NCBI GenBank assembly: GCA_044892525.1 | Contig: CM097885.1 | Coordinates: forward strand, 5,954,001-6,018,000 | DNA: 64,000 bases | Direction: 5' to 3' | Origin: Schmidtea polychroa | Taxonomy: Eukaryota | In this document: piece after piece, positions 30,494 to 62,675 of the stretch | Position numbering within the stretch: position 1 is the first letter of the stretch | Layout: every line of letters begins with the position of its first letter | Notes under the pieces: generated by a model | Database searches by the model: none | What the model was told of the DNA's origin: nothing | The model's input: the letters and a program-made list of their open reading frames with translations, nothing else | Position numbers and translations under genes: made by a program

Positions 30494-31183
30494 AGTAGGG
30501 TATTGTGTGGACCCGGGAACAAAGACATATGACGTCATCGATGACGTCACAAAGAAATATGACGTCATACCCCCGGGGAGGGGGTTTTTTTTTAATTTTT
30601 TTTTTTAATTTTTTTTTTTAATTTTTTTTTTTAAATTTTTTAAAAAAATTTTTTTTTTTTAAACATTTTTTTTTAATTTATATTACGTTGCGGTATTTTA
30701 AAATTTATATTACGTTGCGGTATTTTAAAATTTATTATATTTTAATTATTAAATATATTACGTTGCGGTATTTTAAAAACTTATTGATAAAAGTTTAATA
30801 AAATAAAATTATTATTACACACACACAATATAGTCTACCCGACAAAATATTCTGTTCCCCTATGGTCACACACACACACAATGTATAAAAATATTATTTA
30901 CACACACGCAACAAGTTAGTGTTCTCATTGATATATTAATAATCTATATACTCCGAGTCTATCCGACAAAATATTCTGTTCCCCTATGGTCACACACACA
31001 CAATGTATAAAAATATTATTTACACACACGCAACAAGTTAGTGTTCTCATTGATATATTATTAATCTATATACTCCGAGTTTATCCGACAAAATATTCTG
31101 TCCCTCTATGGGTACTGCTCACAAGGGTACTGGTCACGCTCAACAACTCGCAAGGGTATTAATAAACAATGTAATAAAACATA

Positions 31184-31240
<57 letters not shown>

Positions 31241-31335
31241 ATTTCTATCACAAATCATGGTTAACAAAAAACATAGTCGAATATTATAAAATTAAGGTAT
31301 TGTGTTAGCACACACTCGTTATAATAATTAGCAAT
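30494..31335 (+). repeat. Maverick-2 left TIR (842 bp)
   Basis: Near-identical reverse complement of 60311-61014, plus one extra ~123-bp internal unit. Confidence 0.95.
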
Positions 31336-31348
31336 GTAATAAAACATA

Positions 31349-36774: not shown

Positions 36775-37802
36775 AATCACTCCGGGACCCGTTAAAATTG
36801 CGTCCCGCAATTCTGTTAGACATATGAATTTCCCAGGTCATAGTCTATTACATTCCCATTAACCTATAAACATACTATAATAGTTTAAGACATGTTAGAA
36901 TTCAATTAGCAGAAGAAGGTCTAAGCTCAAATTCAAGCAGTTGCCACATACAGTGACTGGTCATAATACACATACATACTGATACAGTGTCCAAACTCAA
37001 GTACGAGTCATATGCAAAAGTTTTATTTCTGGATCAATTCTTCAGTTGGTTGTTTCTTATCTTTTCTGGGTTCGGTTTTCAATCTTTCGGCTGGGTTTTG
37101 TAGGCATGTTTGATTCCTGTTGTTGATTTTCATAATTAGCTCGTAATACTTACTGAAGATCATAGGATTCTCTCTATCGGGGTTTGACTGTTTTCCCATA
37201 TTCTCTTTGGATTTTTAGGTTGGGATTCTGATTTTCTGGATCATTTGATGGTATTGACGGACCTTGCTCCAGGGTTTTCGGAACTTTTGTTCAACTGGGT
37301 GATTTGACACATTGATTTTTCTTTTGGTTTTTCTTGGTGGTTTTGTTTACGGTATTGCTCTTATTAAGGGGTTTTCTTCCTCTAGTGGGTAACTTGAATT
37401 ATTTTCGATTTTGGTCTAAGTTCGCTTGATTTGATTAAGTTTCTAATGTCACTGGGTCTGTGACTTTCGTCTCATTTATCAGGATCTTTTACCGTTCTTT
37501 GTTTAGGGGTTCCAAATTAGGTATTATTTTTAGATATTCGTTTAACTCATTCTTTCTAGGTTTGCATCTTTATCTTTCTTCTGGATTTATATTCTTTCTT
37601 CTCATTTGAGCCTCTGTTCTCCTTTACCATTGTAAGGGTTCAAATTTTGTATTTTTCCCAACTGATTACTTGATCCATTTCTATTTATACATCGATCTTT
37701 TGCCACATTATACATCAATTTATACCTATACATCTAGTACATTTAGTTTGCTATTTATACATCAATTTTTACATATGTTCACTTCCTTTTTACTATTTTC
37801 AT

Positions 37803-40364: not shown

Positions 40365-41349
40365 TAAACTTGGTTCTATTATTAACTGTTTTGATCTGGT
40401 ATGCTTTGTTATTGGTTCAATATTTCCGAACTTGGCTTAATTGTTTGACAATAACTTCTAGTTGGTTGCTGTTACTTGGCTGTTGGCTTGTTTGCTTGAT
40501 TTACCTGAATAGAAAAATATCACTTCTCCCTATCGTTTATTATATTTATAAATTGTAATATATATATTATATAGTGCAATTGCAATATTTTTACTTTGGT
40601 TTCTTTGGGTGCCGGCATATCTTAATATTCATTTCGTCGTTAGTTTTGTTTACACATTGGTTCTCAAATTCCTACGTAATTTTTTCGATCCTTCTTATTT
40701 AATTCACATTCCTTTTCTTCGTTTCTATAGTTTTCTCTACTTTAACTGTCTTTTTTCCTTGGCTTATCTCTATCTATTGACTTGCATTACTTGTATTCTT
40801 GTTTCTATCTTAGTTTTCTTCATTGATGTAGTCTTTATTCTGTTCATGTTTGTTTCCGATTTTTATAATTTCCTCCGTTTACCTTATTGGTCGTCCTTTA
40901 TATCTCTCTTTTTCCATTATCGTTACCAATTTTTAGACTTATTTATTATTCTTGACTCGGTTCTCCATTATTCATTCTATATTCTCATCTATTCTCCTAC
41001 ACGGTTGTCTATTTTCAATTCGTTTTTCGTCTTTTTCCTTCACGATCTTATTTATTTTCAGTTATATATCTGTCAATGACTTCGGCTGTATTCTCATTTA
41101 TAGTCCCGTCTATGTTTCTTTCTAGGTACTCATCTATATTCTCGTTTATCTTTCCTTTTACCTTCTCATCTATATTTACGTCTGTTATTTCCGTTTATTA
41201 TTCGTAGTTATTATTCTCGTTTATATTCGCGTCTATGTTTCTTTCCAGGTACTCATCTATATTCTCGTTTATCTTTCCTTTTACATTCTCGTCTATATTT
41301 ACGTCTGTTATTTCCGTTCCTATTCGTAGCCATTATTCTCATTTATATT

Positions 41350-42004
41350 CGTATCTCTTATTCGCATCTATTATTTGCATCTATTATTCGCATCTATTAT
41401 TCGCATCTATTATTCGCATCTATTATTCGCATCTATTATTCGCATCTATTATTCGTATCTATTATTCGCATCTCTTATTCGCATCTATTATTCGCATCTA
41501 TTATTCGCATCTATTATTCGCATCTATTATTCGCATCTATTATTCGCATCTCTTATTCGCATCTATTATTTGCATCTATTATTCGCATCTATTATTCGCA
41601 TCTATTATTCGCATCTATTATTCGCATCTAGTATTCGCATCTATTATTCGCATCTATTATTCGCATCTATTATTCGCATCTATTATTCGCATCTATTATT
41701 CGCATCTATTATTCGCATCTATTATTCGCATCTATTATTCGCATCTATTATTCGCATCTATTATTCGCATCTATTATTCGCATCTATTATTCGCATCTAT
41801 TATTCGCATCTATTATTCGCATCTATTATTCGCATCTATTATTCGCATCTATTATTCGCATCTATTATTCGCATCTATTATTCGCATCTATTATTCGCAT
41901 CTATTATTCGCATCTATTATTCGCATCTATTATTCGCATCTATTATTCGCATCTATTATTCGCATCTATTATTCGCATCTATTATTCGCATCTATTATTC
42001 GCAT
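41350..42004. repeat. 13-bp minisatellite (CTATTATTCGCAT)n, ~50 copies
   Basis: Direct reading; homogeneous at the right end, variants at the left. Confidence 0.97.
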
Positions 42005-45000
42005 TCCTTTGACTGTCCTTGTCCCTATCATTCTGCCTACCGGTTATCTATCAATTTAGTCTTTAAGCTCTAATTGTTTCTCTTTACTTCGCTCTCTCTT
42101 TTCCCATTTACTTGGTCTTCTTTTTATTTCTCCTACATGCTTCTTTTTACTACTCTTCCAGGTTTTCCCCACTCTCCTGACTCCGGATGCGAAACACTCG
42201 CACTGGTCGATCTCCGATCGTGTGGTGATCAGTCACACGCAGAGATGTTCCAGTATATGCGATGGGCCCTGTTCCACATCTTTCGTCAGGACAGTTGGTA
42301 CTTTCCTGGGCCTTATCCGTACTACGCTGAGCGTAGCTCATAGGTTGTGGATTTCCTAAATCCTAACAGAAAAATTTTTTCCTTATTCATTTGCTCTCAA
42401 TTTTCGTAGGACTTTATTCTCATTTTTACGTCGTGCTCTTAATCTACTTATCTCAATTACTCTTGGTCCTTCTTCATTATTCTAAATATGTCCACGTCTC
42501 TTGTCTAGTTAACGTCTTATTGCTATCGCTTTTACTCTTACCGCTTTAGTTGACTTGTTTCTCGTTAATATGCTCACTATTTCCTCAGGCAGATCCCTCT
42601 CGCATCACTCGTTAATATTTGTTTATCCATTTTATTCGTTACCCTTCTATTCGTCAATGGTTTATTTATTAACCATCCCTGCTCAATTTTGTAATTTATC
42701 ACGCTTCCGTATTAGTATATTTTCCTTATCTTTGATTTTTTATGTTACCTCACTGATTTCCCCGTCATAATGTTTCTCATTTCGTATATTTTACGTTTTC
42801 AAAATTTGTTTGTTGTTTTTCTGTTTATGGGCCTCTTTGTTCCACTCCCTATATTTTATGTTTTTAACTTATTTCCGCGTCTATTTGTTATTTTACTTTT
42901 GGCGCGTAACTTTGATTGGTCATTTATTTTCATTATCTCATTTAATTGTTTATCTATGTCTACATATACACTCATATACTTATACATATACCCTTATCCA
43001 TAACCGTATATTCATATACCTATATCCACCTATATCTGGATATCTACATCTGTACGCATTTCTCCCTAGCTGTTCCTGGAGTGGTTGATATTATTGCTTC
43101 CATCATTTCTGAATTTATTCAAATTTATCATTGAAATTCCCACAATTGTAACTTTATAGTTCGTAATAAAAGTAGACAGTCCGTTCGTTTTTCATTATTG
43201 TAACTTTTTGCTCCATAGTAAAAGTTGGCAGTATGTTCGTTTTCCCTAATTAAAACTTTTGTTCGATATTTCTAATTGATCTCATTTTTGTTAGCATCTA
43301 TTGTTATTTTAATTGACCGTGTCGTGATGTTAAGCTTTCAATTTTTTGTTCTGTTTCTCTGTATCATGTTTCATTTTATATTTGTCGTTTCTCGCTGTTT
43401 TGCCTTTTCGTTCAAATGTCTTTGGCCTTGCTTTCCTTCTGTGAATTTGTTATTTGTTGTTTCATGTTTGTTCATTTCGTTCTGTGTTTTCCTTGTCATT
43501 TTTATTGTGTTTATTTGTTCATATTCTATTTTGTTATATGTGTGCTCTTCATTTTCTGTCAATCATGTTTTTGTATACTTTTTTCCGATTGTTCCTATTA
43601 TTGCTCATGTCCATTTTGACTTTCATCTTGATCTCCCGTTTGTTGTTATCTTAGTTTGATCTCATTTTTCCTCCGCGTCTTCGCCAAATGTCGTCCCCGA
43701 CATTCATTATTTAATTTATTTATTATCTTGTGTTCTCTCGGTTCTCAGTATTTTGTTCTCGTGTCCTCTCTACAATATTTGCCAAACGTCCATTTTTTCT
43801 GATTGATTTTCCTTACTCTTAAATAGGCGTAGATTTTAATAATTTGAGTTTTCGCATTATTTTATCTTTGTTTACGGTGATCGGTCCTCTACTTTTATTA
43901 TATATCATTTTTGTTGGGGTGTATACACCGATATATGCAATTATTCATATACAATTAGTCCTCTTTATGGCACTCAGTTCTGCCATTACTGTCTCTTTTC
44001 AATGCTATGACCATGCTAATAGTTCGTTGGTTTTCTCCTTTACCAACAGAAACCACCGGTACAAGTGTTCTTCTACTCATTCCACCTCCATCTCGGTATA
44101 TTGAATGCTTCATTTTATGACTATTTTCCATGAATATAATGCTGTAATTGTTACAGCTATTTGTATTTCATCTTCAGCTCCCTGCATTTTCCTTTTCCCG
44201 TTTCCTTTTAACGTCTGATATTATCCGTTGCATTTTTATCATATCTTTCTCTCCTTGATTTCCCCAGCTATTCTTATTAGTTCATTTCTTGCATTTAACT
44301 TTATCATTAGAGTTGTTCTATTTCTCTTCACTTTAGTTCAATTTTTCCTCTCTGGCCTTGATTATTCTCTCACGAACAAATTCATTGTTCAAATTTTCGA
44401 TTAGATTGTTCCTCCATGAGATTCCTTACTTCTGTATAGCTAATGCTATTTACGATAATATGACGCTTTTCTGCTTCCATATTTCTCCTGTGGTGGTATT
44501 GGGATTGATTTCCATTGTGATCCGTTTCATTCTATTAATTCACCTACATTGATTCCTAATCTTTTATCTGAATTTTATTACATTTTATTTCCCAAAGTTA
44601 TATACTAATTATACCGCGCTGATATATATATATATATTTTTATATAATCATATACCTTTATATATTCATTGTTCACACTATATATAGTCATCACCCTTTC
44701 TATGTATGTGGGTTCGTAATTCGTGATACTTGCTAGATCTCTCCCCACTGTTCTTAGTTTAGTGTTCTGTACTCTTTCATTTACTGTATATTTCACCCGT
44801 CTGGTTCTAATTGTTTCCAATTCTCTATCGTTGACGTTGGATAATTTTTCATACTTCTTTCCGGTTATTAATATGAGCATCGTACGTTTAACTGTCTTGT
44901 ATATTCATATTACTTTGGCTAACCTTAGGCTTCCTGGTTTCTTTCGCTGGATCATTTTCGTTGATACCTATCATGTTATTCTCGTATCTTGTATATTTAC

Positions 45001-48000
45001 TTTCATTGATTTCTCTCTATACTTTGTCAATCTCCCGAGTCGTTTTACATAAGTTTTAGAATTCATTTTCTACGTACCCTGGGTGTCTGTGATGTTCGCC
45101 TATTTTGCAAAGTTTTTCACTGCCTTTTAACTTAGTTCTCGTGCCTTTGTCACGAAGATTTTATTTCGATTTGTTTTTGCTCTATTTTTGTACCGTGATT
45201 TTATTTTTTCGCAGTTATGCTCGATTGTCTTTGGTTCAGATTTATTTTTCGAGTTACCAGCAAGTTTAGTTCTTGTTTTTGTTCTTTTACTTAACGCTTT
45301 TGTTCATTTTGTTCATTTCTATTCGTGATGTTTCGATGTCTTTTCTTGTCTTTACTTTCTTTTACTTTCCGTAGAATCTGTTGACTCGCTCGGTTTCGTC
45401 TGGTAAACTCATCTCTTTATCTATAATGTTGTTCGTCTCAGATTCACATTTGCAGAAGCTAAGACATGGTTATCATTTGTTTTATTTATCGTTTGGTACT
45501 TTGTTATCTGTCGAGTTTTATCGTATTTTTCATTTGGATGTTTATTCAATCGTTTTTATGGTTTGGTCTTTCCATTTTACCGATGCATTTAACATCCTTG
45601 GGTACTCTACCCTTGGGTTGGTATGCGTAGAAGGTATTACCTGTAGAGTATAATTGGTTTAAATAGTCCTTATCATACACTGTATGTATCGACAACTCAA
45701 TACCAGAATCATATATAGCTTGCTTTTTCCTAAACCCCCTAATCCATACATTCTTATATATCATTTGCATATAATCATTCATACCATTACATATTCATTT
45801 ATCAGTATATTCTCAAAAAGTTCCCCTTCTAAAGCCGCTATCATTCCCTCGGTTTATCCATTCACTAATCAACGTAATAACAATTAACATTTAATAATTC
45901 ATTGACATAAATATTATCAAGAGCCTGCATAACCAATCCTCAACCAATTGCTGGCCCATCATTCAACCATTCAACCAAACAAGGACAAATTATCAAGGAG
46001 AAGACTTATTTATTTTCATAAAATTAGCTTAGCTTACTTATCCTATTGTCAAACCCTGAATTTACTAAAATCCGGATGTAACGATATTCATACATTATTC
46101 TTTTGTTCTGGGCGTATCCAATCATGTTTAGCAAAGAACATTCCGTCTATCTAAATAGAGTAATTTTGTCGAAACCAATTAATTACGATTTGCTACTCCG
46201 TATAATTTATAATTTCCTAATAAATTCCTCAATGCACTGCTAGCAATTTCCTCGAAACAGATTATTAATTCCATACACACGATAATTGATTTTTGATTAC
46301 GCCTAAGATTTATTTGCAAACCACAGCCCGCAACACAACACCATGACCCCACAGGAGTCAACAATGCACAATTCGATCAAGCTCCAATCACGAGCACTCG
46401 ATGTATAGAAGCGTGTCAATTAAAATCATTGTCAAGATGCGCACCAACCGAAATATATTTGTAAAAACTTATAGTTGCAAGTGTCTTGTCTTACCAGTGT
46501 ATCCACATGCTCTTCGGGTGTACGATTTCACCCGCCCTTCGTCTTTACTATTATCATAATTTGTAAATAATCACACCGACCAGCAACCGATCACAATCGA
46601 ATGGGTACTGATTTGGGTTTTTATAATATAGACCTTAGTTTACCTATAATAAATGTGCGTATGAATTAGCAATGTGAGATTAAATTGGCAATTATATTAT
46701 ACAACAATAGGAAACAAAATCGATGTTAATAATATATATATTATAAACAAGCACACACAAACACGGCTCGCAAGACACATGCAACAGGATATTGATTCAA
46801 CAAGGGCATTTAATCAGCTGAAATTTTCCAATTTAAAATTAACAACAAAAATTGTACGAGGATGTTTGTAACCTCATCAGAATCGACTATTTCGTTTCGA
46901 GAATTTCGTAGCCAAATGTGTAAGCTTTTCATTTAAACTTGAGACATTTTATAAAATCTATATGGAATGGCCATTGCTGACAACGAAAGAATCATCAAAT
47001 CCATGGCGGATGGCCATAATTATCACGAATCAGGCCACATTCTCGGAATCCAACGGAATACAATAATCGGCACCATAAATAAAATTTACTAACATTTTTA
47101 GAATAGAAATTCCACTACAGTTGTTTAGGACGCTTGTGATATTTTATTACAGACAAGGCAGACCAACATATAGAGTCAAGTCAATAACACTAAGACGCAT
47201 AAATCAACACTACTTATACAACACACGAATTTATAATTGAATATTTCACGCATATATAAAAAAAATTTTGAAATTACCACTATCCTGAGATTAATAACAC
47301 CAAATAAAATTGATGGTTCTGACCAGTGGACATGATTTATTAATACATTGATTATCCCATTACTGAGTAACAATAATTATTTAAGTGCATATAAATTTGT
47401 ATACAAGTACAAAATGCCATAGTAACATAATTAAAAATCATTTTCATACATGCAAATTTGACAATTTTCTGTTTTATTTTAACCAATTAAATCAAAAATA
47501 GAAAGCCATACATAATTTTATTAAAAACTGAATTTTAAAATACTTATAAAACATACTTGATTTAATTAGTAAAGTCCATAAAATCAATAAAAAATATATA
47601 TAACCATTCCAACTATACTGCACTGAAAAGTCGCTCAAAGTTTTACTCGACATCGACAAAAGCCACGAAACGAACCGAGAGAAATTGCAATGAATCGAAG
47701 AACTAATCAAATTTCCAGCATCATTTTCAAAAGTAAATGTTCGAATTATTATTCCAATTAATAGACATGGTAAAATCAATAAAAACGTATTCCATTTTCG
47801 TTCTGTCAATCTCATATCATTTCAATTTCATCTGAACATTACAGCAACAATCCAAATCCAAAAGAAGTGAAATCTAAAAACGAAAAACAAATAACTGTAA
47901 AACATCTCGTTTCTGATTGGCTGATTTTCATGAACGTAGAAAACCAATTGCACACGCATTGTACAGAACACGCATGCACACATGCCATGCCATACCGCCG

Positions 48001-48854
48001 GCACACACACCAACCGACACCGCAATGTAAAATCATCAACTCAAATAATCACTCAACCATGAAAGAAAAAACACTTTAAACCTGCACCAACCATTCCTCA
48101 ACTCACCCTTATCATTAATACACTGCGGTAGTGCTCAAATGCGCGTCTGAACACGCCCCTGAGCCAAACCGCGCGTTGCGCATCACTGCGTTTCTTCGCT
48201 GAAACCAGTTCAGACGGGCAAAGTCCCCATGCCACCGCTGATGCGAAAACGTGTTGCTAATGTTGATTGATTGTTCCAAAATACGATCTATCATGATTAA
48301 ATAGAATGTATTGAAAATTTTCCATTCGCACTATATGTAGTTATGATTTTTGAACTTCTGCTTTGAGGTAAAATTCTCCATAATAATAGGTCAATTGTTG
48401 ATGATGGCCTTTAGATTATATGGTAGTTATCGGATAAATATTTATAGGAATAAGTTGGAATGTAGCTGACAGTGTCACTTATTTTGTACTAATGAGATAA
48501 CATATAATCATTACAGATTGCATTCAAGCCAGTCAGCACTTGGTGAGCCTATAATGATACTATTGTTGACAGGGCGAATGTTCTAAGGATCGAATTCACA
48601 TTTTTATAAGCATTTGTTAATTTTAATAACGTTTAAATGAGTTTTTATCATCGCATATATATTTATATAATGATCAACTATTAATTCTATCGACAATTGT
48701 AATTATAAATTTTATTTTATTTCTATTAATTATTTCATTAATTGCTCTTTCATATATAACAGAAATTTGTTCACAGAAGCATACACACAGATCTTTATGT
48801 TTACATACATTCCTTGTAGACTTAATTTTTTTATATATTTTTTTTTCTTTTTGA

Positions 48855-48872
48855 TTCCCGGCTGAGCCCCCA
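48855..48872 (-). promoter_or_regulatory. Primer-binding site, tRNA-Pro-like
   Basis: Minus strand TGGGGGCTCAGCCGGGAA, 7 nt downstream of the 5' LTR; resembles the tRNA-Pro PBS TGGGGGCTCGTCCGGGAT. Confidence 0.8.
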
Positions 48873-48879
48873 AAAATCA

Positions 48880-50536
48880 TGTTGGTTACTTAGGGGTGTG
48901 TCCTTTTTACAATTTAAAATACGTTAGGGGTAATCATAACCGTTCGACTCTTTCCTAAGCACCTCCATGACTATTGCAATTTAAACCATTTGTGTACCCA
49001 TGGCGACGACCATGTTGGCACTGTACACAAAGGTGAAAAAACAATGAGCAGGTGAGCTCTATTACTAAAACTACTCCCCATTGGATTTTCTTTTCGGGTT
49101 CTAGACTGCCGATAGAAGGTCTTACGTCCTTATTCACTATATATGCTATTTTTGGATCGTTGTTGGTCCTCAATTACGGGTATTTCTAATTGTTCTCTTA
49201 TAAAATTTTGTGCAGGGATCCGTCCTTATTTCCCAGCTAGTAATTATTGTTCTACACTTCCTACAATATTTAAATTATCCTTTGAAAAATTTGCGCAGGG
49301 ATTGGCCCTTATTTTCAAGTTAATCCACACTTGCCATAATATTTAAATTGTCCTTCAAAGATTTTGAGCAGGGATCTGCCTGTGTTTCTAATCCTGAGCT
49401 GTCGGAAAAATTACATAAATCTAACTTTATCCATCTTCAACTGGTCTCAACTATTCCATCTTTACTCCTAACTCACTTATGTCTATAAAACATAAAGGCG
49501 ACTAAGCCACCTACATTATCTAAATCTAAATAAAATCCTAAACGACCTAAAATGACATTACACTCCCAAATCATTCCTATCACTATCACTGTCCTCTAAC
49601 TCGATGGACTCAACCGGCGAAATATCTGCCGACCAACAGCACGTAGTGCCGCCCGTCCACAAACTTTTCCCCAGCCCAGACCATCGACACAATCAACAAA
49701 TAATATAATTGAATTCAATAAAAACTATGATTTAGAATAAATGAATTTAAACCATTAAAAAGGATCACTAAAGAAAATTTAACCGAAACATTAATAGCAT
49801 ATAAAATTTATTAATTAAAATACTCCATAAAAATTACAGAAAACAATAACAAATAAATTACCACATCCACGTTGGCATAAAATCGAAACTGAGAGTTCTG
49901 CAAATTAAGTGGCTATGTTGGAAAAAGTGAGTGTTTTTCAATTGAATTTGTGATCAGTATTTATACTGATTTTGAATGCGTACTCTATCCAATCAGAGTG
50001 CGAGAATTATTGAATTGATTTTGCACACATGCATGAATGTGTGTAATTATTTATTTGTTTTAATTTCATAAATTTAATTAATTTCTTATTTAATTTTTAT
50101 TAATTTTAATTTTACAAATTTTATAATTTAACTAATTTGAGTTATATTAATTTTTATTAATTTAAACATTTTTATTCTTTAAATTTAATAAGTTAAATAA
50201 CCATTTAATTCTATAAACTTTACAATTTACATAATGCTAATTAATTTTATTATTTTTGACGATTTAATCTTTATATTGTTTAAATAATTTTCAACTAATT
50301 CCATTTTCTATTTTATTATTTTTCTATTTAAATTTTTAAGTGTTGAATTTTCTGTTAAATTTATTTATCTCTTTATTCTATTATACGGGGTTTATTGATT
50401 CTTAATGTGTAATGTAGTTTATTTTATTTATTTTAAATTAAACCTTGGTCATAAATTTTTTTCAACTTTGCGGTTTTTGTGTTAGGTATTTTCGATCGAT
50501 TAAAACAAACTCTCAGTTCTCGTTTTCAGCCCAACA
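48880..50536 (-). repeat. 5' LTR (1657 bp)
   Basis: Direct repeat of 35125-36774; differs by a 2-nt and a 9-nt indel. Confidence 0.96.
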
Positions 50537-52606: not shown

Positions 52607-52991
52607 TTAACCATCAAATTTTTTATACAACAACCATGCCAAACAGTGTTGACCACATGTTTGAGTCAATGGATTTTGAAACATAGTTTTATTATATACA
52701 ATAGGTTTCCCAATTGTTTGAAGTTTTGATATCAACAAAGCAGGATAATAGAAACCCATAGGATCGAATACGAATATATTACTAGGTTTCACATATATAG
52801 CTATCCAATGTTCTCCACCAAGATGAGACGAATGAGTATTGATGATTATGGCTTGATTATTGCTCAAATAAGGAATTTTATCAAGAGGAAAAACTCCTAC
52901 AAATTCATTTCCTAATATTTGTTTTCCAATTCGATTAACCTGAACAGAACTACTTTAATAAAATTAAACAGTATCAAAAAACTTACTCCAT
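52607..52991 (-). CDS. Adenain-like protease with a 5-nt first coding exon (intron 52950-52986)
   Basis: ATGGA|GTAAGT...TAG gives MDSVQVNRIG...FVGVFPLD...GEHWIA...FDPMG...FQ...TCGQHC. Confidence 0.88.
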
Positions 52992-53018: not shown

Positions 53019-54242
53019 TTATACTAGCACGGTTCTATTTGCAATAATTTGAACTTCATTTTCAAATACTCCATATATTATAACATGTACCGGTTCAGTA
53101 ATAGCTTTTGCAAACTTAATATCCAGTCGTAAATTCCCGTTTTGTGGTAGTTGACTCTGATTTAAATCAAAATCCGGAGCTAAAACAAATGTGAAAAATG
53201 GATATTTGCTTTTAAATTCTTCTAGAGTTATTCCACAATTCAAGTTTTTATCTAAGTAACCCAGATTTCTAACAATACTCTGCATATATGTCGCACAGTA
53301 ATTATCGCTTTCGAAATCTTGAGTATATGTTTCTCTATAATCAGTATTTTTCGACAAAGTCAATGAAGTAACACCAAAATTTTTGAAAATTGAGCTGGAA
53401 GCAGTATATGATCCATTATATTGCGTTTCATTTTGAAATGTTACCAGAATAAAATTAGGCATTCTTCTGTCACCAAATATTTGTTCTTTATAGAATGATG
53501 AAGCACCTTTAGCAATAGCAAATTGTACAATTTCCTTTGTTTTTAAAGGATAAATTGCATGTTTTGAATTAAGACCCAATTGATGACCAGCTAATACTGA
53601 CGGGTCTACTCGAACTCTTCTCACCAATAATTTTGCATCAACTAATTGGCATATTGGTGCACCAGTTGCACTAGTAAGAGATAATGCAGAATCAGACCTT
53701 TTCAATCTAATGTGTACATTAACTCCTGGTAGCAAATATTTCGGTTGATCCATAAAATCGAGTTGTAATGATGAGCACATAGTGAATGATTTTGAGCCTT
53801 TAACCCACTTTTTTCTTTCATCATCTGTTGCTGCATAACCCATGGGTGTAAGACAGGTATTTTTAGTATCGGAATTGTAATTTAAAATAGTTTCTATCAA
53901 AGCCTTGTGAATGAATGTATTATTTCCGCCCTCAATCTTAATATTATTAAATCCCAAGACTGCATCTTTAAACAGAGTATGAAACATGAAATTGTTCGGT
54001 ATTACATCTGCATTGGCATCCAAAACTTTTCTATCTTTATCTACAACCTTGATCTGAACAGTCAATAAAGTATCATTCAAATCTAAATATTCAGTTTGCG
54101 AACCATTAATATAAAACTCGATATCATTTCTACTATCAGTAATTGAATTCATAGGAAAAACTTCCTCAAAGGCCCCAAATTCGATTACAGCTTGAGGCGA
54201 TGGTCTATCAAATATACATAATTCAGATTTACCACAAATCAT
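53019..54242 (-). CDS. Double jelly-roll major capsid protein
   Basis: KSELCIFDRPSPQ, EYLDLNDT, QPKYLLPGV, GNLRLDIKF, typical of the classical Maverick MCP. Confidence 0.9.
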   Translation of the reverse strand: MICGKSELCIFDRPSPQAVIEFGAFEEVFPMNSITDSRNDIEFYINGSQTEYLDLNDTLLTVQIKVVDKDRKVLDANADVIPNNFMFHTLFKDAVLGFNNIKIEGGNNTFIHKALIETILNYNSDTKNTCLTPMGYAATDDERKKWVKGSKSFTMCSSLQLDFMDQPKYLLPGVNVHIRLKRSDSALSLTSATGAPICQLVDAKLLVRRVRVDPSVLAGHQLGLNSKHAIYPLKTKEIVQFAIAKGASSFYKEQIFGDRRMPNFILVTFQNETQYNGSYTASSSIFKNFGVTSLTLSKNTDYRETYTQDFESDNYCATYMQSIVRNLGYLDKNLNCGITLEEFKSKYPFFTFVLAPDFDLNQSQLPQNGNLRLDIKFAKAITEPVHVIIYGVFENEVQIIANRTVLV

Positions 54243-54601
54243 TTTGCAAATATAGTTCCATGTCCTTTCATTCGTTTGTTTATACGCGATATTCCATGTC
54301 CTTTACGTTTTGGAGCTGGGGCTGGGGGCGTATCTTTTTGAAACATACCAGCAACTCCAGGTAGAACCTTCCCTAACTCAGCTAAAGCATTTGTTTTTAG
54401 AGATGGTAATATTTTCTGTTCATTCATAATAACATCTTTTGCAGTTTTCATACCAAAACTACCGATACGTTTAAGAATAGGAAGTGCAAATCTCCCTATT
54501 GTTTTTAACCAGCCTGATCCGTACTGTTTACCAATAAAATATGGTAATTCACCGCCAGATTGGCTATCACTATACATACTAATAATAATGGAATTAGCCA
54601 T
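54239..54601 (-). CDS. Basic core protein
   Basis: QSGG..PYFIG.QYGSG..RFALPIL motif, repeated KGHG, basic C-terminus. Confidence 0.7.
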   Translation of the reverse strand: MANSIIISMYSDSQSGGELPYFIGKQYGSGWLKTIGRFALPILKRIGSFGMKTAKDVIMNEQKILPSLKTNALAELGKVLPGVAGMFQKDTPPAPAPKRKGHGISRINKRMKGHGTIFAK

Positions 54602-55125
54602 CTACTTTACGAAAATGTAGTGTCAAATGAGTTTTTGAGTCTTTTGGGAAGTTTATAAGTTTTCCACTATCGTCACGAATATTTATTTCTATATTGTTTA
54701 TACATGAGCTTGCTATTGGTAAATACATGGGATTATCTATATTTATATTGACAACTTCATCATGTTCATATTTTCCAATCCATACCGATTTCAAAAGAGG
54801 AACACTGGAATCACCAACAATTATAGGCTCAATAATATTAGTATATATGAACATTTGTTGATGATGTTCAAGTATTCTTGGTTTACGTATACCAGCCGAT
54901 TTTTCCCGATATTGCTGCTTCTCTAATCCAAGTGTATTTGTCAAATTTTTATCAAATGTAACTTCGCAAATATCATCATTCAAACTGAAGGTAAACATCA
55001 AATCTTTCACAATGTCCAAACTTTTAAATATGTGTGAACAATTGTACTTTAAATATTTAAGTAACACATCAAGTTTATCAATATATAATTCGTCAGCAAA
55101 GGTGAATGATTCTTCAACTTCATTA

Positions 55126-56136
<1,011 letters not shown>

Positions 56137-56197
56137 TACAACAAGAAGATTTAATATTAAATTTAATGTCTGGTAATGAAGGATTAGCACCCATTGT

Positions 56198-56692
56198 TTA
56201 TGATCGACTTCCTATTATTCCACCTAATAATGATATTGCTAAAGGTATCAATGCACCGATAAATCCCCCTTGTTGTTTTTATATAATTTTTCTCATTTGT
56301 TGACGATTTTTATTATTTACTAATGATAGCAAAGGTTTCCTATGTTTACTCAATAATTGCTTTTTAGATTTACTGATTTTAATCTTACCTTTGACTACTT
56401 TAAGTATAATATCAAGTAAATCATCGACAACATAATTTGGAAAAGATTGCAAAATACTGTTTCTTTTCATACTGGGTGCTTTTAACAATGTATTGAAAAA
56501 CGGGAAACTCCGATGATTTTTAACAACTTTTACTTTCTTAGTGGTTTTACTTTTAGTTTTAGGTTTAGGATATTTCGAAATGAGATTCATTGCAGGAAAA
56601 TTTTCTGTAATAAGTTCTTTAGATGGAGTATAACTAGTTGTTGGTGGAACTTTTGGTTGTTTTTTACTCGATATCCTTGTTTTTGAAAACAT
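56198..56692 (-). pseudogene. Basic core protein with C-terminal amphipathic peptide, interrupted by TAA at 56279-56281
   Basis: The frame continues after the stop as KQQGG|FIGALIPLAISLLGGIIGSRS*. Confidence 0.7.
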
Positions 56693-56705: not shown

Positions 56706-57344
56706 TCAAATTTGTTTTAAACTTTGTTTATAAACCATGGCACCTTTTGGGTTGAAAATATCTGTTTTTACCCGTATATCATCAGGACATTGTTGTGTGA
56801 AATCGAGAAATATATACCCATGAGGTATTTTCGTAGCATCTTGAAATGCACTGATAAGAAAATTACGGTTATTAGGGTATGCTTGTCGTCCAAGAAAATC
56901 GATGACAGTTGCATCTCTAGGATTCTTGAAAATAACTAGATATTGTACATTTAAATTACGTGTTCGATGTGCACCACCTTGATGAAATAGATTTTGTGTT
57001 ATGAAAATAACTTTTACACCAACATGTCTGCTGATTTTTGTGAATAAATTATTAAAATCCTTTTCTTTATTGGCTTCTTGATACAAATCATCGATAATGA
57101 TGACATCATCTTTTTTCAAACGACTTGACCAGTTTTTATCAAAACCCTTTACTATTTTCATGTTTTTCAATTGACAGAAACTTGATTGAGTCAATCCATG
57201 TTCTTCATCGGCGCCCCTATGCCAATAAATATTGTTGAATTTTGTTTTGAACAAATTAGATTTTAGTAATTTACAAACAAATAATGTTTTTCCACTACCA
57301 CTCGGACCAACGATTTGGTATACTGCATCATTTCGTAATTCCAT
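56706..57344 (-). CDS. A32/FtsK-like packaging ATPase
   Basis: GPSGSGKT, IIIDDL, SRH, ITQNLF, FKNPRD. Confidence 0.95.
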   Translation of the reverse strand: MELRNDAVYQIVGPSGSGKTLFVCKLLKSNLFKTKFNNIYWHRGADEEHGLTQSSFCQLKNMKIVKGFDKNWSSRLKKDDVIIIDDLYQEANKEKDFNNLFTKISRHVGVKVIFITQNLFHQGGAHRTRNLNVQYLVIFKNPRDATVIDFLGRQAYPNNRNFLISAFQDATKIPHGYIFLDFTQQCPDDIRVKTDIFNPKGAMVYKQSLKQI

Positions 57345-57448
57345 TTTTTAAATTTAAACTATATAATTATTGTTTATATTGATAATTTAAATGTACTCCT
57401 TTTTAAAATAACTATATATAACAGAGTTTTTATAATTATTTCATTAAA

Positions 57449-57913
57449 ATGCTTTCAAATATAAATTACATGGCAAAAGCTGATGTATCAAAAATGGTAT
57501 TTCCAATGGGGAAACCACAACAACTCATCAATAGAAGTAAAAAATATCCAATAATATATTTCAAAACTGGTAAATGTAGAATTATGGGGTGTAAGGAAAT
57601 AATCAAAGCTAGTGAATATAATGTTTATGATTTAGAAATACAATCGATAACCGTAACTTCCGATATAGGTTTTTCTTGTAATTTAAATAATTTGGCTAAA
57701 TTAATACCATGCTTTTGCGAACCAGAATTATTTCCAGCTTTGAGATATATAAAATATAACCCTATGTGTGTAAATATATTCGCTAGCGGTAAAATAGTAA
57801 TTCTTGGAATAAAAAATATTGATTACAAATGTATAGTTGATAATATCATATCTGAAATTAAATCAATAATTGAAGGAAAAGAATTTTTAGATTTTTTATT
57901 ATCACTTAATTAA
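57449..57913 (+). CDS. TATA-box-binding protein (TBP)-like
   Basis: Two TBP half-repeats: IIYFKTGKCRIMG and IQSITVTSDIGF..NL..LA...CEPELFPALRY...NIFASGKIVILG. Confidence 0.85.
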   Translation: MLSNINYMAKADVSKMVFPMGKPQQLINRSKKYPIIYFKTGKCRIMGCKEIIKASEYNVYDLEIQSITVTSDIGFSCNLNNLAKLIPCFCEPELFPALRYIKYNPMCVNIFASGKIVILGIKNIDYKCIVDNIISEIKSIIEGKEFLDFLLSLN

Positions 57914-58034
57914 TTATTTATCATTGCAAATTCAATGCAATTAAAATGCATGATTCTGATTGGTCAAAATCTAATTGGCTGATGATTATTTATAACAAAA
58001 TGTTTTCGGTTTAGTTGTCATTTATTCAACAAAA

Positions 58035-58444
58035 ATGTACAACATACAAAGTTCCGCAATCACCTCAATGAAAGAGCATGCAAATTATGGTAATTTCAAA
58101 TTTTTATTATTACATTAATATATATATTTTTTACAGATGAATATCAATCAATTATCCTGCAAAGATTATGCTTCTATTATCCAGAATTAAATGAAATTCT
58201 ACAAGATAGAGATCCAGCTATCATTCCGGATTTGGTATACAACCAAACTCGAATCTGGATATTCGATATAATAAATACCTTTCTATGGGATATCAAGATA
58301 GGAAGGGGGATGAAAGAAATGAAAGCAGAGGCTCCTTGCATTTTCGGATGTAGCTGTTGCAATTTCCGTTATCAACAATATGTTGAATGGTGTTTGGTGA
58401 AGACTCTGAGAAATCATCACTCGAGTCAGATTGTATCAAAATAA
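58035..58444 (+). CDS. Spliced hypothetical protein (exons 58035-58089, 58137-58444), Cys cluster
   Basis: GT-AG intron joins an ATG exon in frame; CIFGCSCC. Confidence 0.6.
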
Positions 58445-58732
58445 ATTTTTTTTTTATGTTGAATTGTTTTGTTTTTGTAAATCGAAATAATAGAAATAGA
58501 AATAATAATAATAGTAATAGAAATAATATAAGTAATAATAGTAATATTAGAAATAATAATAATAAAAAACAATATTTATAATAAAAACATTAATGCAACA
58601 TTAATGCAAATGACATGCAATTTAAACAAAGACATGCAATTTAAACAAAGACATACAGCAATCTGATTGGTTGATAAACAATAGTCATAGGTATAAAAAC
58701 CCTGTACCATTTCATTTTAATCATTATTTACG

Positions 58733-59152
58733 ATGACAAAGAAAATTTCAAGCACTGAAAAGCCAAAAGTTGTTCCAGAACTTGTACAACCTGTTCAAAT
58801 GTTCCACAACTATAAAATGTATTTTTTAAAAGAAGAAATCAATATAAAATTGGTGTCACCGATCAAGCTAATTCCAACTAAATTTCAATTCTTATCCGGC
58901 ACGCTTTCAATGTTAGATGTTAAATCTATTGATGAGGTTTTCAAACGGTTGAATACGAATCTATCTTGTAATCAACATGCCTGGTTCAACAACAGATATG
59001 CAAGATTTTATGATTCATTTGATGAAATCGGTTTCAAAGAAAACGAAAATTGGTATATAACAATTGCAATCCAAGGATATAAAGTTGATAATAAAGATGT
59101 GTATTCTCCAATTTGGAAAATTATGTTTGCTAGACTTTCACAACTATTTTAA
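58733..59152 (+). CDS. Hypothetical protein, possibly OB-fold ssDNA-binding
   Basis: 139 aa with upstream CCAAT (reverse) and TATAAAA. The beta-rich C-terminus ITIAIQGY...PIWKI resembles viral SSBs (weak). Confidence 0.5.
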   Translation: MTKKISSTEKPKVVPELVQPVQMFHNYKMYFLKEEINIKLVSPIKLIPTKFQFLSGTLSMLDVKSIDEVFKRLNTNLSCNQHAWFNNRYARFYDSFDEIGFKENENWYITIAIQGYKVDNKDVYSPIWKIMFARLSQLF

Positions 59153-59285
59153 TGTTATATTTAATAAATGTATTAGTCATATTTGTTTTTTCTCTTTATT
59201 AATTGCAACATTAATGCAAATGACATGCAAATTTAACAAAGAAAATCTATAAACATACTTATAATATAGTTTTAAAGTGTTATTA

Positions 59286-59620
59286 ATGACTACAGAAAAA
59301 GGTTAACATGATTAATTAAATACCGAATTATTTATTATTTAGAATTATTAATCAACTTTTTGTTGGAAAAGTTAGCAGAAATAGCTGGTGTAAAAATTGA
59401 GGATATATTATCTATTACAAATGCCTTAAATATCGGCTGGGTAGCTGAGAGTCAAGATTCAGGATTTGACAATCATGAAGAAACTCAAGAAATTGATGAC
59501 GAAGTCTATGAACCTATAGAGGAACCTAAAGATAATATTACGAATGATTGTATTGATCATGTCGTTGAAAATATAATGAAATGTGGAGATGACGATTGCG
59601 AATGTGTTAATAAATTTTAA
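59286..59620 (+). CDS. Spliced small acidic protein (exons 59286-59301, 59343-59620)
   Basis: 41-nt GT-AG intron gives MTTEKELLINFLLEKL...DSGFD...CGDDDCEC. Confidence 0.55.
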
Positions 59621-59664
59621 AATTGAATTATTTTCATTTAAATATACTATTAAAAACAATAACA

Positions 59665-60193
59665 TTAATTTTTATTCATATATCTACAGAAAATATACAT
59701 TATAACAACTCCAGTTGTAAGTTTTATATAGTTTTTCATTTTTCTTTTGATTTCATCAGTTTCTTTAAAATTGCAGGCCAGTTTATTTAATACACCCCAT
59801 CCGCCATTGGCTTCTATCCATGGGGTAAACTTGGACTTGATTATCTAGAAATGAATATTATTAAAATATAGATTATAAAAGAAATCTTACTTCTAAAGAC
59901 CAATGATAATAATGTTCTGAATCATGTTGACCTTTTGCAATGATTATCTTCATGTAGGTGAATCCTACAATTATCCTTGTCCATTTCATGTCTTCATCGA
60001 AAAGACACTGAAATATTCTATTGAAGTAATACTTCTTGGTTTCCAGGGATTCCATCTCCATCATCTGCTGATAATCGATATGTTCACCTTCAATGATTTG
60101 TTCGGTTCGATTGATCAGGAAATTGAGGCTGTCGACTATATTCGCGGTGACAATTCCGTTTAGAACATTTTCCATAAAATTTGGTTGCGACAT
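59665..60193 (-). CDS. Bcl-2 family protein, 160 aa (exons 60193-59891, 59844-59665)
   Basis: BH1-like LFDEDMKWTRIIVGFTY, BH2 FTPWIEANGGW, C-terminal hydrophobic anchor LTTGVVIMYIFC; 46-nt GTAAG...CTAG intron. Confidence 0.82.
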
Positions 60194-60310
60194 TTCTAAA
60201 ATAATTTAAAATATAATGTTTTTATTTATACTAATACCATATGATTTTGATTGGTTGATAGACTATAAATGTAAAAGAAAGGTTTTGATTTGATACACCA
60301 TAAAAACTAT

Positions 60311-60405
60311 ATTGCTAATTATTATAACGAGTGTGTGCTAACACAATACCTTAATTTTATAATATTCGACTATGTTTTTTGTTAACCATGATTTGTGATA
60401 GAAAT

Positions 60406-60462
<57 letters not shown>

Positions 60463-61014
60463 TATGTTTTATTACATTGTTTATTAATACCCTAGCGAGT
60501 TGTTGAGCGTGACCAGTACCCTTGTGAGCAGTACCCATAGGGGGACAGAATATTTTGTCGGATAGACTCGGAGTATATAGATTAATAATATATCAATGAG
60601 AACACTAACTTGTTGCGTGTGTGGACACTAATAATATTTTTATACGTTGTGTGTGTGTGTGTGACCATAGGGGAACAGAATATTTTGTCGGGTAGACTAT
60701 ATTGTGTGTGTGTAATAATAATTTTATTTTATTAAACTTTTATCAATAAGTTTTTAAAATACCGCAACGTAATATATTTAATAATTAAAATATAATAAAT
60801 TTTAAAATACCGCAACGTAATATAAATTTTAAAATACCGCAACGTAATATAAATTTTAAAAAAAAAATTTTTAAAAAAAAATTTTAAAAAAAAAATTTAA
60901 AAAAAAGCCCCCCCTCCCCCCCGGGGGAGGGGGTGGGGTATGATGTAATATGTCTTTGTGACGTCATCGATGACGTCATATGTCTTTGTTCCCGGGTCCA
61001 CACAATACCCTACT
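60311..61014 (-). repeat. Maverick-2 right TIR (704 bp)
   Basis: Inverted copy of 30494-31335. Confidence 0.95.
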
Positions 61015-62675
61015 TATGTTAAAAATAAAAAAATATTACCATATTATTTTTATTCTATATGAAAATATTTGTTGATACCCCTCTCCTTCAAAGTTGTCCC
61101 GCTTTGCCCATCTAAAAATCTGGTCACCTTAACTATGTCTCAAGATTTACGGAATAATTTAACTATCAAATAATGTTGATAATTATGATTCATTAATAGA
61201 TCAATTTTAGTGAGAAAATGTAGAAAAAAGCTTTTTTAAAGATGTTTTCACTAAGATTATTAATTATTTGTAATAAATTATACAGAACTATGAATAAAGT
61301 CATGAAGTAATAAAATTAAAAAATTGGGTAAATTATTTAGAAATCTTTCGTATCCAAAATTGAAAATTATTCCGCAAGAAATATAAAATATTGAATTTTC
61401 ACACGATTACTTTGTCACCAAGGAGAGAAAATAAAAATTGCAAATGGGGGCCCCTTAAAGTGTAATCCGGCCTTAGGTACTATGCAACAGTAACAATCAA
61501 AGCCTTAATAAAAAATTGACTATGCAAAATTAACAGAATGACTATTGTTGTCCTTGAACCAAGTCCCGGATTTGTTTCATCAAACAAGTAATAGCATGCA
61601 TTGTAAGTTAATTTAAATTCAATGAAAATCCCCAAAAAACAATGACGATTGATTGAAAAGTATAAATTAAAAGGTTAATTAACGTAGAAAATATCAAACG
61701 AAAAGGACAATCAGTCAATAAAAAATGAAAGATTTAAATAAAGTAAATAGTTTGATAGGCCATACCATAAAAGCGTGGATAAATTTAACCTGATTGGCTG
61801 AGGAAACGCACCAATCATTCAAATATACTGATTGTTCAAAAATAACGGTATACTGTAGTTTTATAAAATCTCAATTGTATGCCTTTTAATTGATAGCAAA
61901 CCTATGAAGCTGAATATTTCGAAGTTAAGTTCTGAACTTAATGTTGTTTTCGTTTTTTTGTGGCTTTCATTTCTGATGCTTGTTGTGATCATCAATAATA
62001 TTATGGACAGCACCCAATTAATATTATGAGAGGAGGTTGGTAAGTCAGTCAGTCCTGGCCCGAGATTGAATAAGTCTTAGGAAATTTTGACTGTTTCACT
62101 GATCTATTCGAGAGTCACTTTAAATGACAGATTTTGCTAAGGGTCTTGGCGTAGGTGTAGTGAGCCGTTACACGGCCTTAACAATATCTATATACCTATT
62201 ATACTATATTATATTATATTATACGATATTATATTATATATATAAATGCGCGGTCACCAGCGACTAAGGACCAAACAGAACACAATAACAGTCAATCAAA
62301 ATTCGTGCGATCAGCTAATACTTCTACTTATCAATCAGGCTCTATTAATCAATCTCAGAAGAGTAAAGCAAATTCGATGCCATGTTATCATTATCAAGAT
62401 AAACTGTATTCGGCTCCCAATAGTTTTAGTGTTGGCTCTCATAGACCAACACCCTCATCCATTACAATTCGCGAAATACGGAACAAATCCTAACAATAAT
62501 ATAAAAACCTAAATTTGTTTATTTTGCATTTATTTATTAGTAATTGACTACTTGAAATTCTTACGCGAAATTTATAAAATCGTTAAGCTTTTTAAATTAT
62601 ATATTTTTAAAAATCTGTTTATTTTTTATCGAATGATATAATTTTGTATTTTTTTGTAATTTTGTTTACTTATAT

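Follow-up and report, generated by a model that had tools for sequence, protein, structure and literature searches.

A short TBP-like protein and a YATAAACR box suggest a two-stage promoter programme in a planarian Maverick element

Introduction

Mavericks, or Polintons, carry capsid genes without an RNA polymerase, and it is a long-open question whether they are real viruses and how such genes come to be expressed. The question is raised by a stretch of 64,000 nucleotides from Schmidtea polychroa (assembly GCA_044892525.1, contig CM097885.1, positions 5,954,001 to 6,018,000 of the forward strand), referred to here at its full length as the window. It contains a Maverick element (positions 30494-61014) in which five small genes, g1 to g5, lie between the packaging ATPase gene and the right terminal inverted repeat (TIR). 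One of them is similar to TATA-binding protein (TBP), another to the Bcl-2 family. An original prediction, made from the letters, took the five for a host-control cassette like the early region of adenoviruses, which would reprogram host transcription, block apoptosis and argue for a true infectious cycle.

The five genes are real, belong to a high-copy Maverick family and are mostly under purifying selection. The features of the TBP-like protein, together with a box of the form YATAAACR before the core genes, point to late promoters of the element itself and not to a reprogramming of host transcription. This suggests a built-in early-to-late switch, as in some true viruses, rather than a general host takeover. 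With a defined pair of protein and box, the question becomes directly testable.

A minimal TBP-like protein

The g1 protein matches the TBP family by sequence (Pfam PF00352, E 3.9e-13). Its structural model (pLDDT 95.7) keeps both beta-sheets and lacks helices H1 and H2 in repeat 1, and Foldseek returns 44 matches at E<=0.001, all of those listed being TBP (E 2.8e-9, TMq 0.69). The predicted protein has the two-repeat saddle fold of the family, and the TBP-like identity proposed originally holds.

Two C-lobe glutamates of the TFIIB-binding type, E91 and E93, are invariant in 66/66 g1 relatives, as are F38, F95, F111, R44, M46, S66, R99 and N109. The spacer that holds H2 measures 16 residues in g1 against 31 in three host TBPs, and the DNA face is polar, with invariant Arg, Asn and Ser in place of hydrophobic residues. 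For this face we presume residue roles known from yeast and human TBP, the equivalence being taken from the alignment. The parts of Ravarani 2020 (PMC7221094) consulted here assign TFIIB binding to the C-lobe glutamates and the contacts with TFIIA, Mot1, Brf1 and TAF1 to the N-lobe; they describe giant-virus TBPs as having diverged glutamates and supplying their own TFIIB. Judged by alignment, g1 would be without the N-lobe surface used by TFIIA, TAF1, Brf1 and Mot1 and would retain the TFIIB glutamates. It is not a canonical cellular TBP, which has four intercalating phenylalanines and the basic N-lobe helix H2.

The protein represents a widespread family. A 90%-clustered collection contains 97 relatives, mostly of 140-180 aa, and when 50%-identity representatives are searched with the g1 profile, 59 clusters match at E<=1e-30. 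A Maverick core gene accompanies 38 of 77 metagenome TBP loci, and 26 of the 33 that are at least 3 kb long; the g3 family is present at 21/77, and several long TBP contigs represent nearly whole elements of Maverick type. A quick tree of 128 rows, few of them cellular, places g1 in a 118-row clade (SH-aLRT 99), with six host TBP/TRF rows and one from a giant virus outside it. The element TBP looks like an old lineage gene in a broad Polinton-borne clade, not a recent host capture. Two TBP-bearing metagenome contigs of Maverick type carry other cargo, read by eye: an ORF like ubiquitin-conjugating enzymes (L094 225-722) and a leucine-rich-repeat-like ORF (L123 1897-3327).

The contact between TBP and TFIIB depends on DNA. 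A genome-wide scan (21 matches from 32 candidates) gave no TFIIB-like gene at Maverick copy number. The canonical host TFIIB gene is interrupted by introns. An intronless TFIIB-like gene of 301-310 aa was seen in 13 scored, clustered copies (L217, L218; G000:C3:38.2-39.1 Mb and C1:23.8-24.2 Mb), and the genome holds several divergent host TBP/TRF paralogs (L068-L072).

A YATAAACR box before the core genes

An unbiased k-mer scan found ATAAACA in 23 of 26 ATPase leaders, where 0.85 would be expected. Scored as YATAAACR at 15-115 nt upstream of de-duplicated gene starts, the box stands on the sense strand at 104/125 core starts of TBP-bearing elements and on the antisense strand at 0/125; with the ATPase discovery set removed, it is found at 78/96. 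It precedes the ATPase (26/29), 'PW' (22/25), integrase (12/17), penton-like (11/17), pX-like (7/7), capsid (13/13), 'PZ' (8/10) and PLA2-like (5/7) genes, the labels 'PW', 'PZ' and pX-like being our own assignments. At the starts of the TBP, single-stranded DNA-binding protein (SSB) and Bcl-2 genes it occurs in only 2/79 cases (0/61, 2/12 and 0/6, respectively), and in coding windows, taken as background, in 2/272.

Elements without TBP served as a control, made up of the window's other Maverick family and one unrelated viral contig (L179). The box was found at 0/16 of their starts, or 0/14 after two misassigned rows belonging to TBP elements were dropped; these controls amount in practice to a single lineage. 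In the Maverick at 13941-27894, the other one in the window and without TBP, the box stands before 0/11 ORFs. In the search for further elements without TBP, scans of viral contigs yielded at most a single unrelated locus, the phage collection gave none, and family scans in the planarian's own genome returned mainly the same two Maverick lineages.

The distances from box to ATG cluster at 33-42 nt (31-50 nt for the ATPase), which may represent a TATA-like spacing plus a short leader; an initiator downstream of the box is unsupported (6/104). In g4 the box is present in 6/6 subfamilies at a constant distance. Where the box lies within coding DNA it biases synonymous choice, as Ile-Asn is spelt ATA-AAC in 27/41 cases near gene ends against 15/95 elsewhere (p 2.5e-8). 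From the identity of the genes that it precedes, the box would define a 'late' class. A non-canonical TATA variant restricted to late and structural genes is the mark of viral late-promoter TBP systems, and the distribution of YATAAACR appears to conform to it.

The remaining genes have leaders of another kind. The original prediction of CCAAT/TATA-like upstream DNA stands for g2, g3 and g5, which have CCAAT, and falls for g1 and g4, which have none in the window copy. In leaders of this copy CCAAT is enriched (4 observed against 1.3 in shuffles; 13/500 shuffles reach 4) and TATAAA is not (161/500). Across subfamilies the SSB and Bcl-2 genes have CCAAT and mostly a canonical TATA. An octamer-like TGCAAAT module before g2-g4, enriched in the window copy, was dropped because it is missing in most subfamilies.

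A proposed two-stage programme

The explanation that we favour, and hold to be probable from the sequences, is that g1 is an element-specific late-promoter TBP which recruits host RNA polymerase II (Pol II), in a programme where host-type promoters act early and YATAAACR promoters late. Host Pol II would first express TBP, SSB, g2 and the Bcl-2-like protein through CCAAT and/or canonical TATA, as the motifs suggest. The SSB, judged by its fold, would aid protein-primed strand-displacement replication, the job of the adenovirus DNA-binding protein, and the Bcl-2-like protein would sit on membranes and probably dampen cell death. The element TBP would then bind the box, with which it is associated, before the ATPase, 'PW', integrase, penton-like, pX-like, capsid and g4 genes; by recruiting host TFIIB through its two conserved glutamates, it would activate the genes for packaging and integration. 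With its N-lobe helices gone, the protein should no longer respond to TFIIA, TAF1, Brf1 or Mot1, the factor that evicts TBP.

A wider proposition, on which our confidence is evenly balanced, is that a broad Maverick clade runs such a viral early/late cascade with a TBP of about 150 residues, YATAAACR and host TFIIB/Pol II, the host-eviction surface deleted, and that this arose independently of the herpesvirus and giant-virus systems. If true, TBP and promoter would form an orthogonal pair that stands alone, and the case that such elements produce particles on schedule would be strong. A minimal TBP which keeps the TFIIB contacts and drops the TFIIA/Mot1/Brf1 surface represents a natural experiment in TBP biology, and the box offers a means of sorting early and late genes in uncharacterised elements.

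Copies, selection and the question of infection

Gene models for all five genes were recovered between the ATPase and the right TIR, where the prediction had placed them. The genome searched comprises 781 Mb and has four large contigs; 40 of 3533 candidates from the DNA search were scored, and 30/30 of the best-scoring copies keep all five genes in the same order. Open frames and intact splice sites are found in 28, 25, 28, 30 and 22 of these 30, a set biased to intact copies, for g1 to g5, respectively. Splicing of three genes is supported as a prediction: g2, g4 and g5 have GT-AG introns, and their sites are kept across subfamilies (g2 acceptor 5/7, g4 acceptor 5/5, g5 acceptor 5/5, g5 donor 5/6, one subfamily in the last count being read across a 1-nt shift), most of which stand at a synonymous divergence of 0.3 to >1. 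At the 3' end of g3, an A-tail begins 11 nt past AATAAA and has no A-rich genomic counterpart in 60/60 matches. This suggests that the g3 family is transcribed, run X2, which holds the tailed contigs, being RNA only by our guess. The loose poly(T) end seen at 57397 was dismissed as transcript evidence because its match extends over only some 30 nt.

Sibling copies, proposed as the check, carry the cassette with dN/dS below 1 for most genes. By a simple counting method between subfamilies, dN/dS is 0.24-0.61 for TBP, 0.12-0.50 for g2, 0.18-0.37 for g3, 0.38-0.71 for g4 and 0.14-0.46 for g5 exon 1. The genes do not share one history: TBP reaches a dS of about 1.2 between subfamilies (L061, L180 and L199 against the window copy), where neighbour genes differ by only 0.05-0.3. 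Cassette genes seem, on these divergences, to be exchanged as single modules. Similar divergence jumps were seen for the g2 and Bcl-2 genes in other copies.

The foremost alternative leaves the programme in place and concerns only the claim of a true virus, so that it is compatible with the two-stage explanation. Elements could spread solely within the cell by copy-in, with capsid genes making particle-like intermediates and no infectious cycle; we regard this as a serious possibility, a little short of even. At least 150 integrated copies of the TBP gene lie in the genome at 95-100% identity, the mean divergence from the window copy is 0.67% (28 young copies, two near-duplicates dropped), and private changes among them are near-neutral (101 non-synonymous or stop, 36 synonymous). 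Among the integrated copies and contigs examined, no free genome or virion was seen. Set against this are the ATPase, which is under purifying selection (dN/dS 0.05-0.25), the single promoter class common to capsid, penton-like and ATPase genes, and the module swapping between lineages, which implies their co-residence in one cell. The case originally made for an infectious cycle keeps its virus-like programme, and Bcl-2 alone is no proof, because planarian LTR (long terminal repeat) retroelements also carry it (PMC6431247, as described in its section 7 on Burro elements). The infectivity of particles is a question separate from the transcription programme.

Host control and the genes g2 to g5

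A less favoured explanation retains the original idea, that the TBP acts on host genes in a dominant-negative or re-targeting manner and forms an E1A/E1B-like cassette with Bcl-2, g2 and g4, the box being a weak TATA variant for host TBP. The cassette is indeed terminal and adjoins the TIR, and g2, g3 and g5 have host-type promoters. A TBP that binds TFIIB but not TFIIA or TAFs could sequester TFIIB, and host TBP tolerates TATA variants (titles of the PDB 1qn series). Nevertheless, we consider host control unlikely. A plain host TATA would not explain why the box is absent from TBP leaders and kept in core leaders across distant hosts, and g2, g4 and Bcl-2 were found beside 0/77 metagenome TBPs, whereas the box travels with TBP.

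The nature of g3 also speaks against a cassette devoted to the host. By sequence g3 has nothing in Pfam, PDB-sequence or ESM Atlas searches, and its alignment of 28 relatives folds at pLDDT 90 into an OB fold. The top four structural matches are DUF2815, the Enc34 SSB, ASFV CP312R and T7 gp2.5 (Z 6.4-7.1, rmsd 2.8-3.6, 101-116 residues aligned); of 31 viral matches at E<=0.001, 26 are named, and all of these are giant-virus proteins. From the model, g3 is most likely a replication SSB of the T7 gp2.5/giant-virus type. The host-control label is only in part correct, the TBP and Bcl-2 folds being borne out and g3 not fitting it, and the likeness to an early region extends to the terminal position by the TIR and not to g4, which carries the late box.

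Searches for the identity of the small proteins g2 and g4 in Pfam, in the ESM Atlas and, by profile, among 5.8 billion proteins gave nothing useful, apart from one unnamed relative. Both have Cys clusters, which would suit host regulators, as would the acidic residues of g4 (26-32%). The E1A motif LxCxE is found in 0/8 g2 and 0/7 g4 sequences (exon 2 scanned), so that the E1A analogue is unsupported; g4 has MxCxD in 5/7 and each g2 has one CxxC. The E1A-like or adintovirus 'Oncoid' pattern, LxCxE next to paired CxxC, appears to be absent. Paralogy of g2 and g4 (hhalign probability 12.9%) was set aside for now.

For g5, the predicted Bcl-2 likeness is borne out by a weak sequence match to PF00452 (E 8.5e-4, below cut-off) and by the PDB matches, of which the first 29/38 are of the Bcl-2 family (best E 0.01); exon 2 alone matches only two BH2 regions (E ~1). 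The protein has a BH1-like WTR, in which the Gly of NWGR is replaced, a BH2 WIEANGGW and a hydrophobic tail; this Gly is Thr or Ser in 6/6 aligned sequences and likewise in the host paralog. These features place g5, by sequence, in the Bcl-2 family with BH1 and BH2 regions and a probable tail anchor; that it counters apoptosis is plausible. Outside the elements, its nearest relative is a host Bcl-2 paralog present in one copy, L174 (G000:C1:268544059-268544487; PF00452 E 7.1e-12), which the element exon-1 profile matches at E 2.3e-19 (Z=1000). The window-family g5 intron, which is located earlier, was probably gained in the element. In L174 the donor lies directly after GGW, and the L185 Maverick family aligns with L174 in one frame. 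In L181 and L183 the Bcl-2 gene is followed by a conserved ORF of 167 aa whose N-terminus is hydrophobic, and in the genome many Bcl-2 matches sit inside long ORFs (1000-3000 aa), a pattern also reported for Burro retroelements. By themselves, the Bcl-2 and SSB genes are ordinary cargo.

Other readings of the box and of the small genes

The box could instead be a host forkhead-type site or a poly(A)-signal variant, with the TBP in a different role, for instance binding the origin or the terminal repeats. ATAAACA fits the forkhead consensus RYAAAYA, tandem genes place the box near upstream gene ends, and no initiator follows it. Improbable as this reading already appears from the strict sense orientation and the narrow ATPase distance, it also sits poorly with the GTAAACA form, found in only 3/125 core leaders, and with a box that often lies within upstream coding sequence. 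The ATPase box is not the poly(A) signal of a neighbour, because that neighbour can be head-to-head. Lastly, that the small ORFs represent neutral baggage or arose by chance, as near-neutral private variation in young copies and the lack of a family for g2 and g4 might suggest, is very hard to believe and is largely refuted by the conserved splice sites and by a between-subfamily dN/dS well below 1 for g1, g2, g3 and g5 exon 1 and, more weakly, g4.

Observations that weigh against the programme

Several observations tell against the two-stage programme or temper it. The association of box and TBP is one evolutionary contrast, the TBP-bearing elements being relatives, and the p-values for the box treat related rows as independent. 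The gene classes are not clean: the protease is mostly without box (3/13), the window polymerase has none, and the integrase, not a virion shell protein, carries it. Host TBP can accept a TATA variant that has C at this position (title of PDB 1qn3). In g1, three of the four canonical intercalating Phe are invariant and the fourth is an invariant Pro (P23). The jump in TBP dS fits module swapping and not a tight co-evolution with one element.

Selection is also uneven. Private TBP changes in the 28 young copies number 22 non-synonymous against 1 synonymous; shared cassette variants lean synonymous by 9 to 8 (p 0.09), which is weakly purifying, the p-value being 2.6e-4 with the ATPase added. In g5 exon 2, dN/dS is 0.51-0.78 and not significant, and the most distant pairs, poorly aligned, give 0.73-1.38 for g2, 0.61-0.79 for g3 and 1.43-1.65 for g4. 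As for splicing, none of the predicted intron joints occurs among the 15 contig rows examined, of 38 from four contig sets, stretches without coverage carrying no weight, and the g2 intron is read through unspliced in one X1 contig. The Z-scores of g3 all lie below 8.

The element and its surroundings in the window

The element is a Maverick/Polinton of the adintovirus type, as it has AGTAG TIRs, a 6-bp target-site duplication (TSD), B-type polymerase, rve integrase, ATPase and adenain (Table 1). The size of about 15 kb given originally applies after removal of a 15.4-kb LTR retrotransposon (about 15.1 kb remain); the full span is 30.5 kb. This retrotransposon, with LTRs of 1.65 kb, lies 60 bp upstream of the polymerase ATG, and its insertion is very recent because the LTRs are identical; its interior has a gag-like ORF and few long ORFs. 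The window copy of the Maverick is defective, because about 600 bp are deleted at the integrase/penton-like junction, as pairwise blastn against other copies shows.

Table 1. Features of the Maverick element, with positions counted in the window.
Feature	Position	Strand	Remarks
TSD, left, 6 bp	30488..30493	+	same hexamer at 61015-61020
Left TIR, AGTAG start	30494..31338	+	against right TIR: 689 aligned nt, 12 mismatches
Protein-primed B-type DNA polymerase, 1126 aa	31685..35065	-	a PF03175-positive copy (E 1.5e-32) aligns over 1085 aa with 59% identity
Secondary LTR retrotransposon, foreign to Maverick	35125..50536	.	two LTRs, 1648 aligned nt, 0 mismatches; CCTA at both flanks
Adenain-type protease ORF	52607..52954	-	PF00770 E 2.3e-6; no in-frame ATG
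Putative major capsid protein (MCP), 407 aa	53019..54242	-	size, position, 19% alignment to MCP of the window's other Maverick
pX-like small basic core gene	54239..54601	-	no family match
Late box	54277..54284	-	42 nt before MCP ATG, within pX-like coding sequence
Penton-like gene (5' part missing) and integrase (3' end missing)	54594..56136	-	rve PF00665 E 1.5e-7
Late box	54695..54702	-	101 nt before pX-like ATG, within penton-like coding sequence
Late box	56195..56202	-	66 nt before integrase ATG
Conserved basic gene 'PW', between ATPase and integrase	56279..56692	-	no family match
Packaging ATPase	56706..57344	-	PF04665 E 3.4e-7
Late box	56725..56732	-	40 nt before 'PW' ATG, within ATPase 3' end; unchanged in 30/30 closest copies
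Late box	57371..57378	-	34 nt before ATPase ATG, in 104-bp head-to-head spacer with TBP gene; unchanged in 30/30 closest copies
g1, short TBP-like protein, 154 aa	57449..57913	+	unspliced; PF00352 match
Two inverted CCAAT boxes before g2	57959..57978	+	CCAAT upstream in 7/8 g2 subfamilies
g2, 120 aa	58035..58444	+	exons 58035-58089/58137-58444; 47-nt GT-AG intron, predicted; helical protein, Cys cluster, no family found
Inverted CCAAT and canonical TATA before g3	58666..58699	+	putative host-type promoter, by motif
g3, 139 aa	58733..59152	+	predicted OB fold; unspliced
AATAAA and probable g3 cleavage/poly(A) site	59163..59179	+	A-tail after 59179 in 2 X2 contigs
Late box	59248..59255	+	38 nt before g4 ATG
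g4, 97 aa	59286..59620	+	exons 59286-59301/59343-59620; 41-nt intron, predicted; acidic, C-terminal Cys cluster, no family found, putative late-class promoter
g5, Bcl-2-like, 160 aa	59665..60193	-	exons 60193-59891/59844-59665; 46-nt intron, predicted
CCAAT and canonical TATA before g5	60223..60254	-	putative host-type promoter, by motif
Right TIR	60308..61014	-	two TGACGTCA palindromes and G/C tract near end
TSD, right, 6 bp	61015..61020	+	matches 30488..30493

Some core genes are identified indirectly. A direct Pfam scan of the window polymerase gave no PF03175 and listed only Endonuclease_7. A Cys/His-rich ORF with an Asn tract at 50703-51311 (-) resembles the N-terminus of the polymerase ORF in L182 and L184, and may be the polymerase 5' part, split off here by the LTR insertion. 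The protease likely has an additional short 5' exon. The 407-aa putative capsid protein has no family match of its own in profile searches; in the aligned capsid set 1/8 members matches PF21738 and one weakly PF16903, the window protein matching neither, and the MCP of the window's other Maverick matches PF21738 (E 1.3e-26). The penton-like gene has no family match of its own, and the rve score of the integrase is just under cut-off (32.0 against 32.6 bits). An AAT microsatellite in the integrase (55642-55747) is bounded by GT..AG, lies within the TDxG/KEF motif, varies in length from copy to copy and reads through as poly-Ile. It is probably an intron, and because of this tract introns are probably not special to the five-gene cassette.

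Near the termini lie a G/C tract and the two TGACGTCA palindromes (60928-60978, mirrored in the left TIR), which recall the ATF/Sp1 sites of adenovirus inverted terminal repeats. The second, distantly related Maverick of the window has a 6-bp TSD and the capsid protein matching PF21738, and is high-copy, with 98 scored matches, those listed being 99-100% identical. Elsewhere in the window are gag-like ORFs (21-1116), an HDAC11-like exon read by eye (6484-7017) and a LINE-ORF1-like frame (12349-12990). At another locus (L181 2787-9638), a Maverick end is adjoined by a tandem array whose 2.1-kb units each contain an HMG-box-like ORF of 201 aa.

Comparison with known systems

The adenovirus early region places E1A and E1B-19K, spliced small genes and a Bcl-2-like gene, beside a terminal repeat with CRE-like motifs, and the cassette shares this arrangement and motifs. 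It differs in having no LxCxE protein, in a Bcl-2 whose nearest relative is a single-copy host paralog, and in including an SSB, a TBP and a late-class gene. The SSBs of T7 gp2.5, Enc34 and giant viruses share with g3 the OB fold and the same inserted helix region; g3 has only 139 aa, no acidic tail and 5-17% identity. Burro LTR elements, as far as PMC6431247 was consulted, are likewise mobile elements with apoptosis regulators, and g5 is set apart from their description as a separate spliced gene in a DNA element.

Adintoviruses, in the portions of Starrett et al. 2021 (PMC8502044) consulted, share with the element TIRs, a 6-bp TSD, pPolB, rve integrase, ATPase, adenain and capsid-like genes. 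Their maps carry the accessory labels Bcl2, IAP and SSDBP, and the legend of Fig. 5 has 'TBP' for MELD viruses with adintovirus-like PolB; the text portions examined contain no TBP analysis, promoter classes or planarian element. The original remark that no description of the gene combination for Mavericks was known needs narrowing, in that Bcl-2 cargo and a 'TBP' label had appeared; a literature search found no paper combining Polinton, Bcl-2 and TATA-binding. Nor did it find, among open papers, one on a Maverick TBP clade or a YATAAACR promoter class. In PMC11071296 none of the terms TBP, TATA, promoter and Bcl occurs.

Cellular TBP/TRF (PF00352) shares with g1 the two-lobed saddle, the C-lobe EPELFP loop and three of four intercalating Phe, whereas g1 is without H1/H2, has Pro for an N-lobe Phe and invariant polar residues on a normally hydrophobic DNA face. 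Giant-virus (Nucleocytoviricota) TBP, in the parts of PMC7221094 consulted, is likewise virus-borne with N-lobe regulator signatures lost; it differs by the diverged glutamates and own TFIIB, where g1 keeps E91/E93 and no element TFIIB was found in the scan. The closest likeness in logic is the viral TBP of beta- and gammaherpesviruses, for which ORF24 of KSHV stands; PMC12529657, as far as consulted, describes it as a TBP mimic with a polar DNA face that reads TATTWAA late promoters. Both are virus-coded TBP folds with a polar DNA face and a short non-canonical TATA variant before late genes, in systems with host-type early promoters that depend on the Pol II of the host. ORF24 is a large protein that binds Pol II directly, needs five viral partners and reads TATTWAA; g1 is a bare 154-aa saddle with TFIIB glutamates kept and YATAAACR, and homology is not claimed. 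Its model has no large Pol II-binding N-terminal domain, which would place it outside the herpesvirus ORF24/BcRF1/UL87 family. Bcl-2, IAP and SSDBP cargo and a bare 'TBP' label are already known from Starrett et al. 2021, and the new part is the TBP-box pair.

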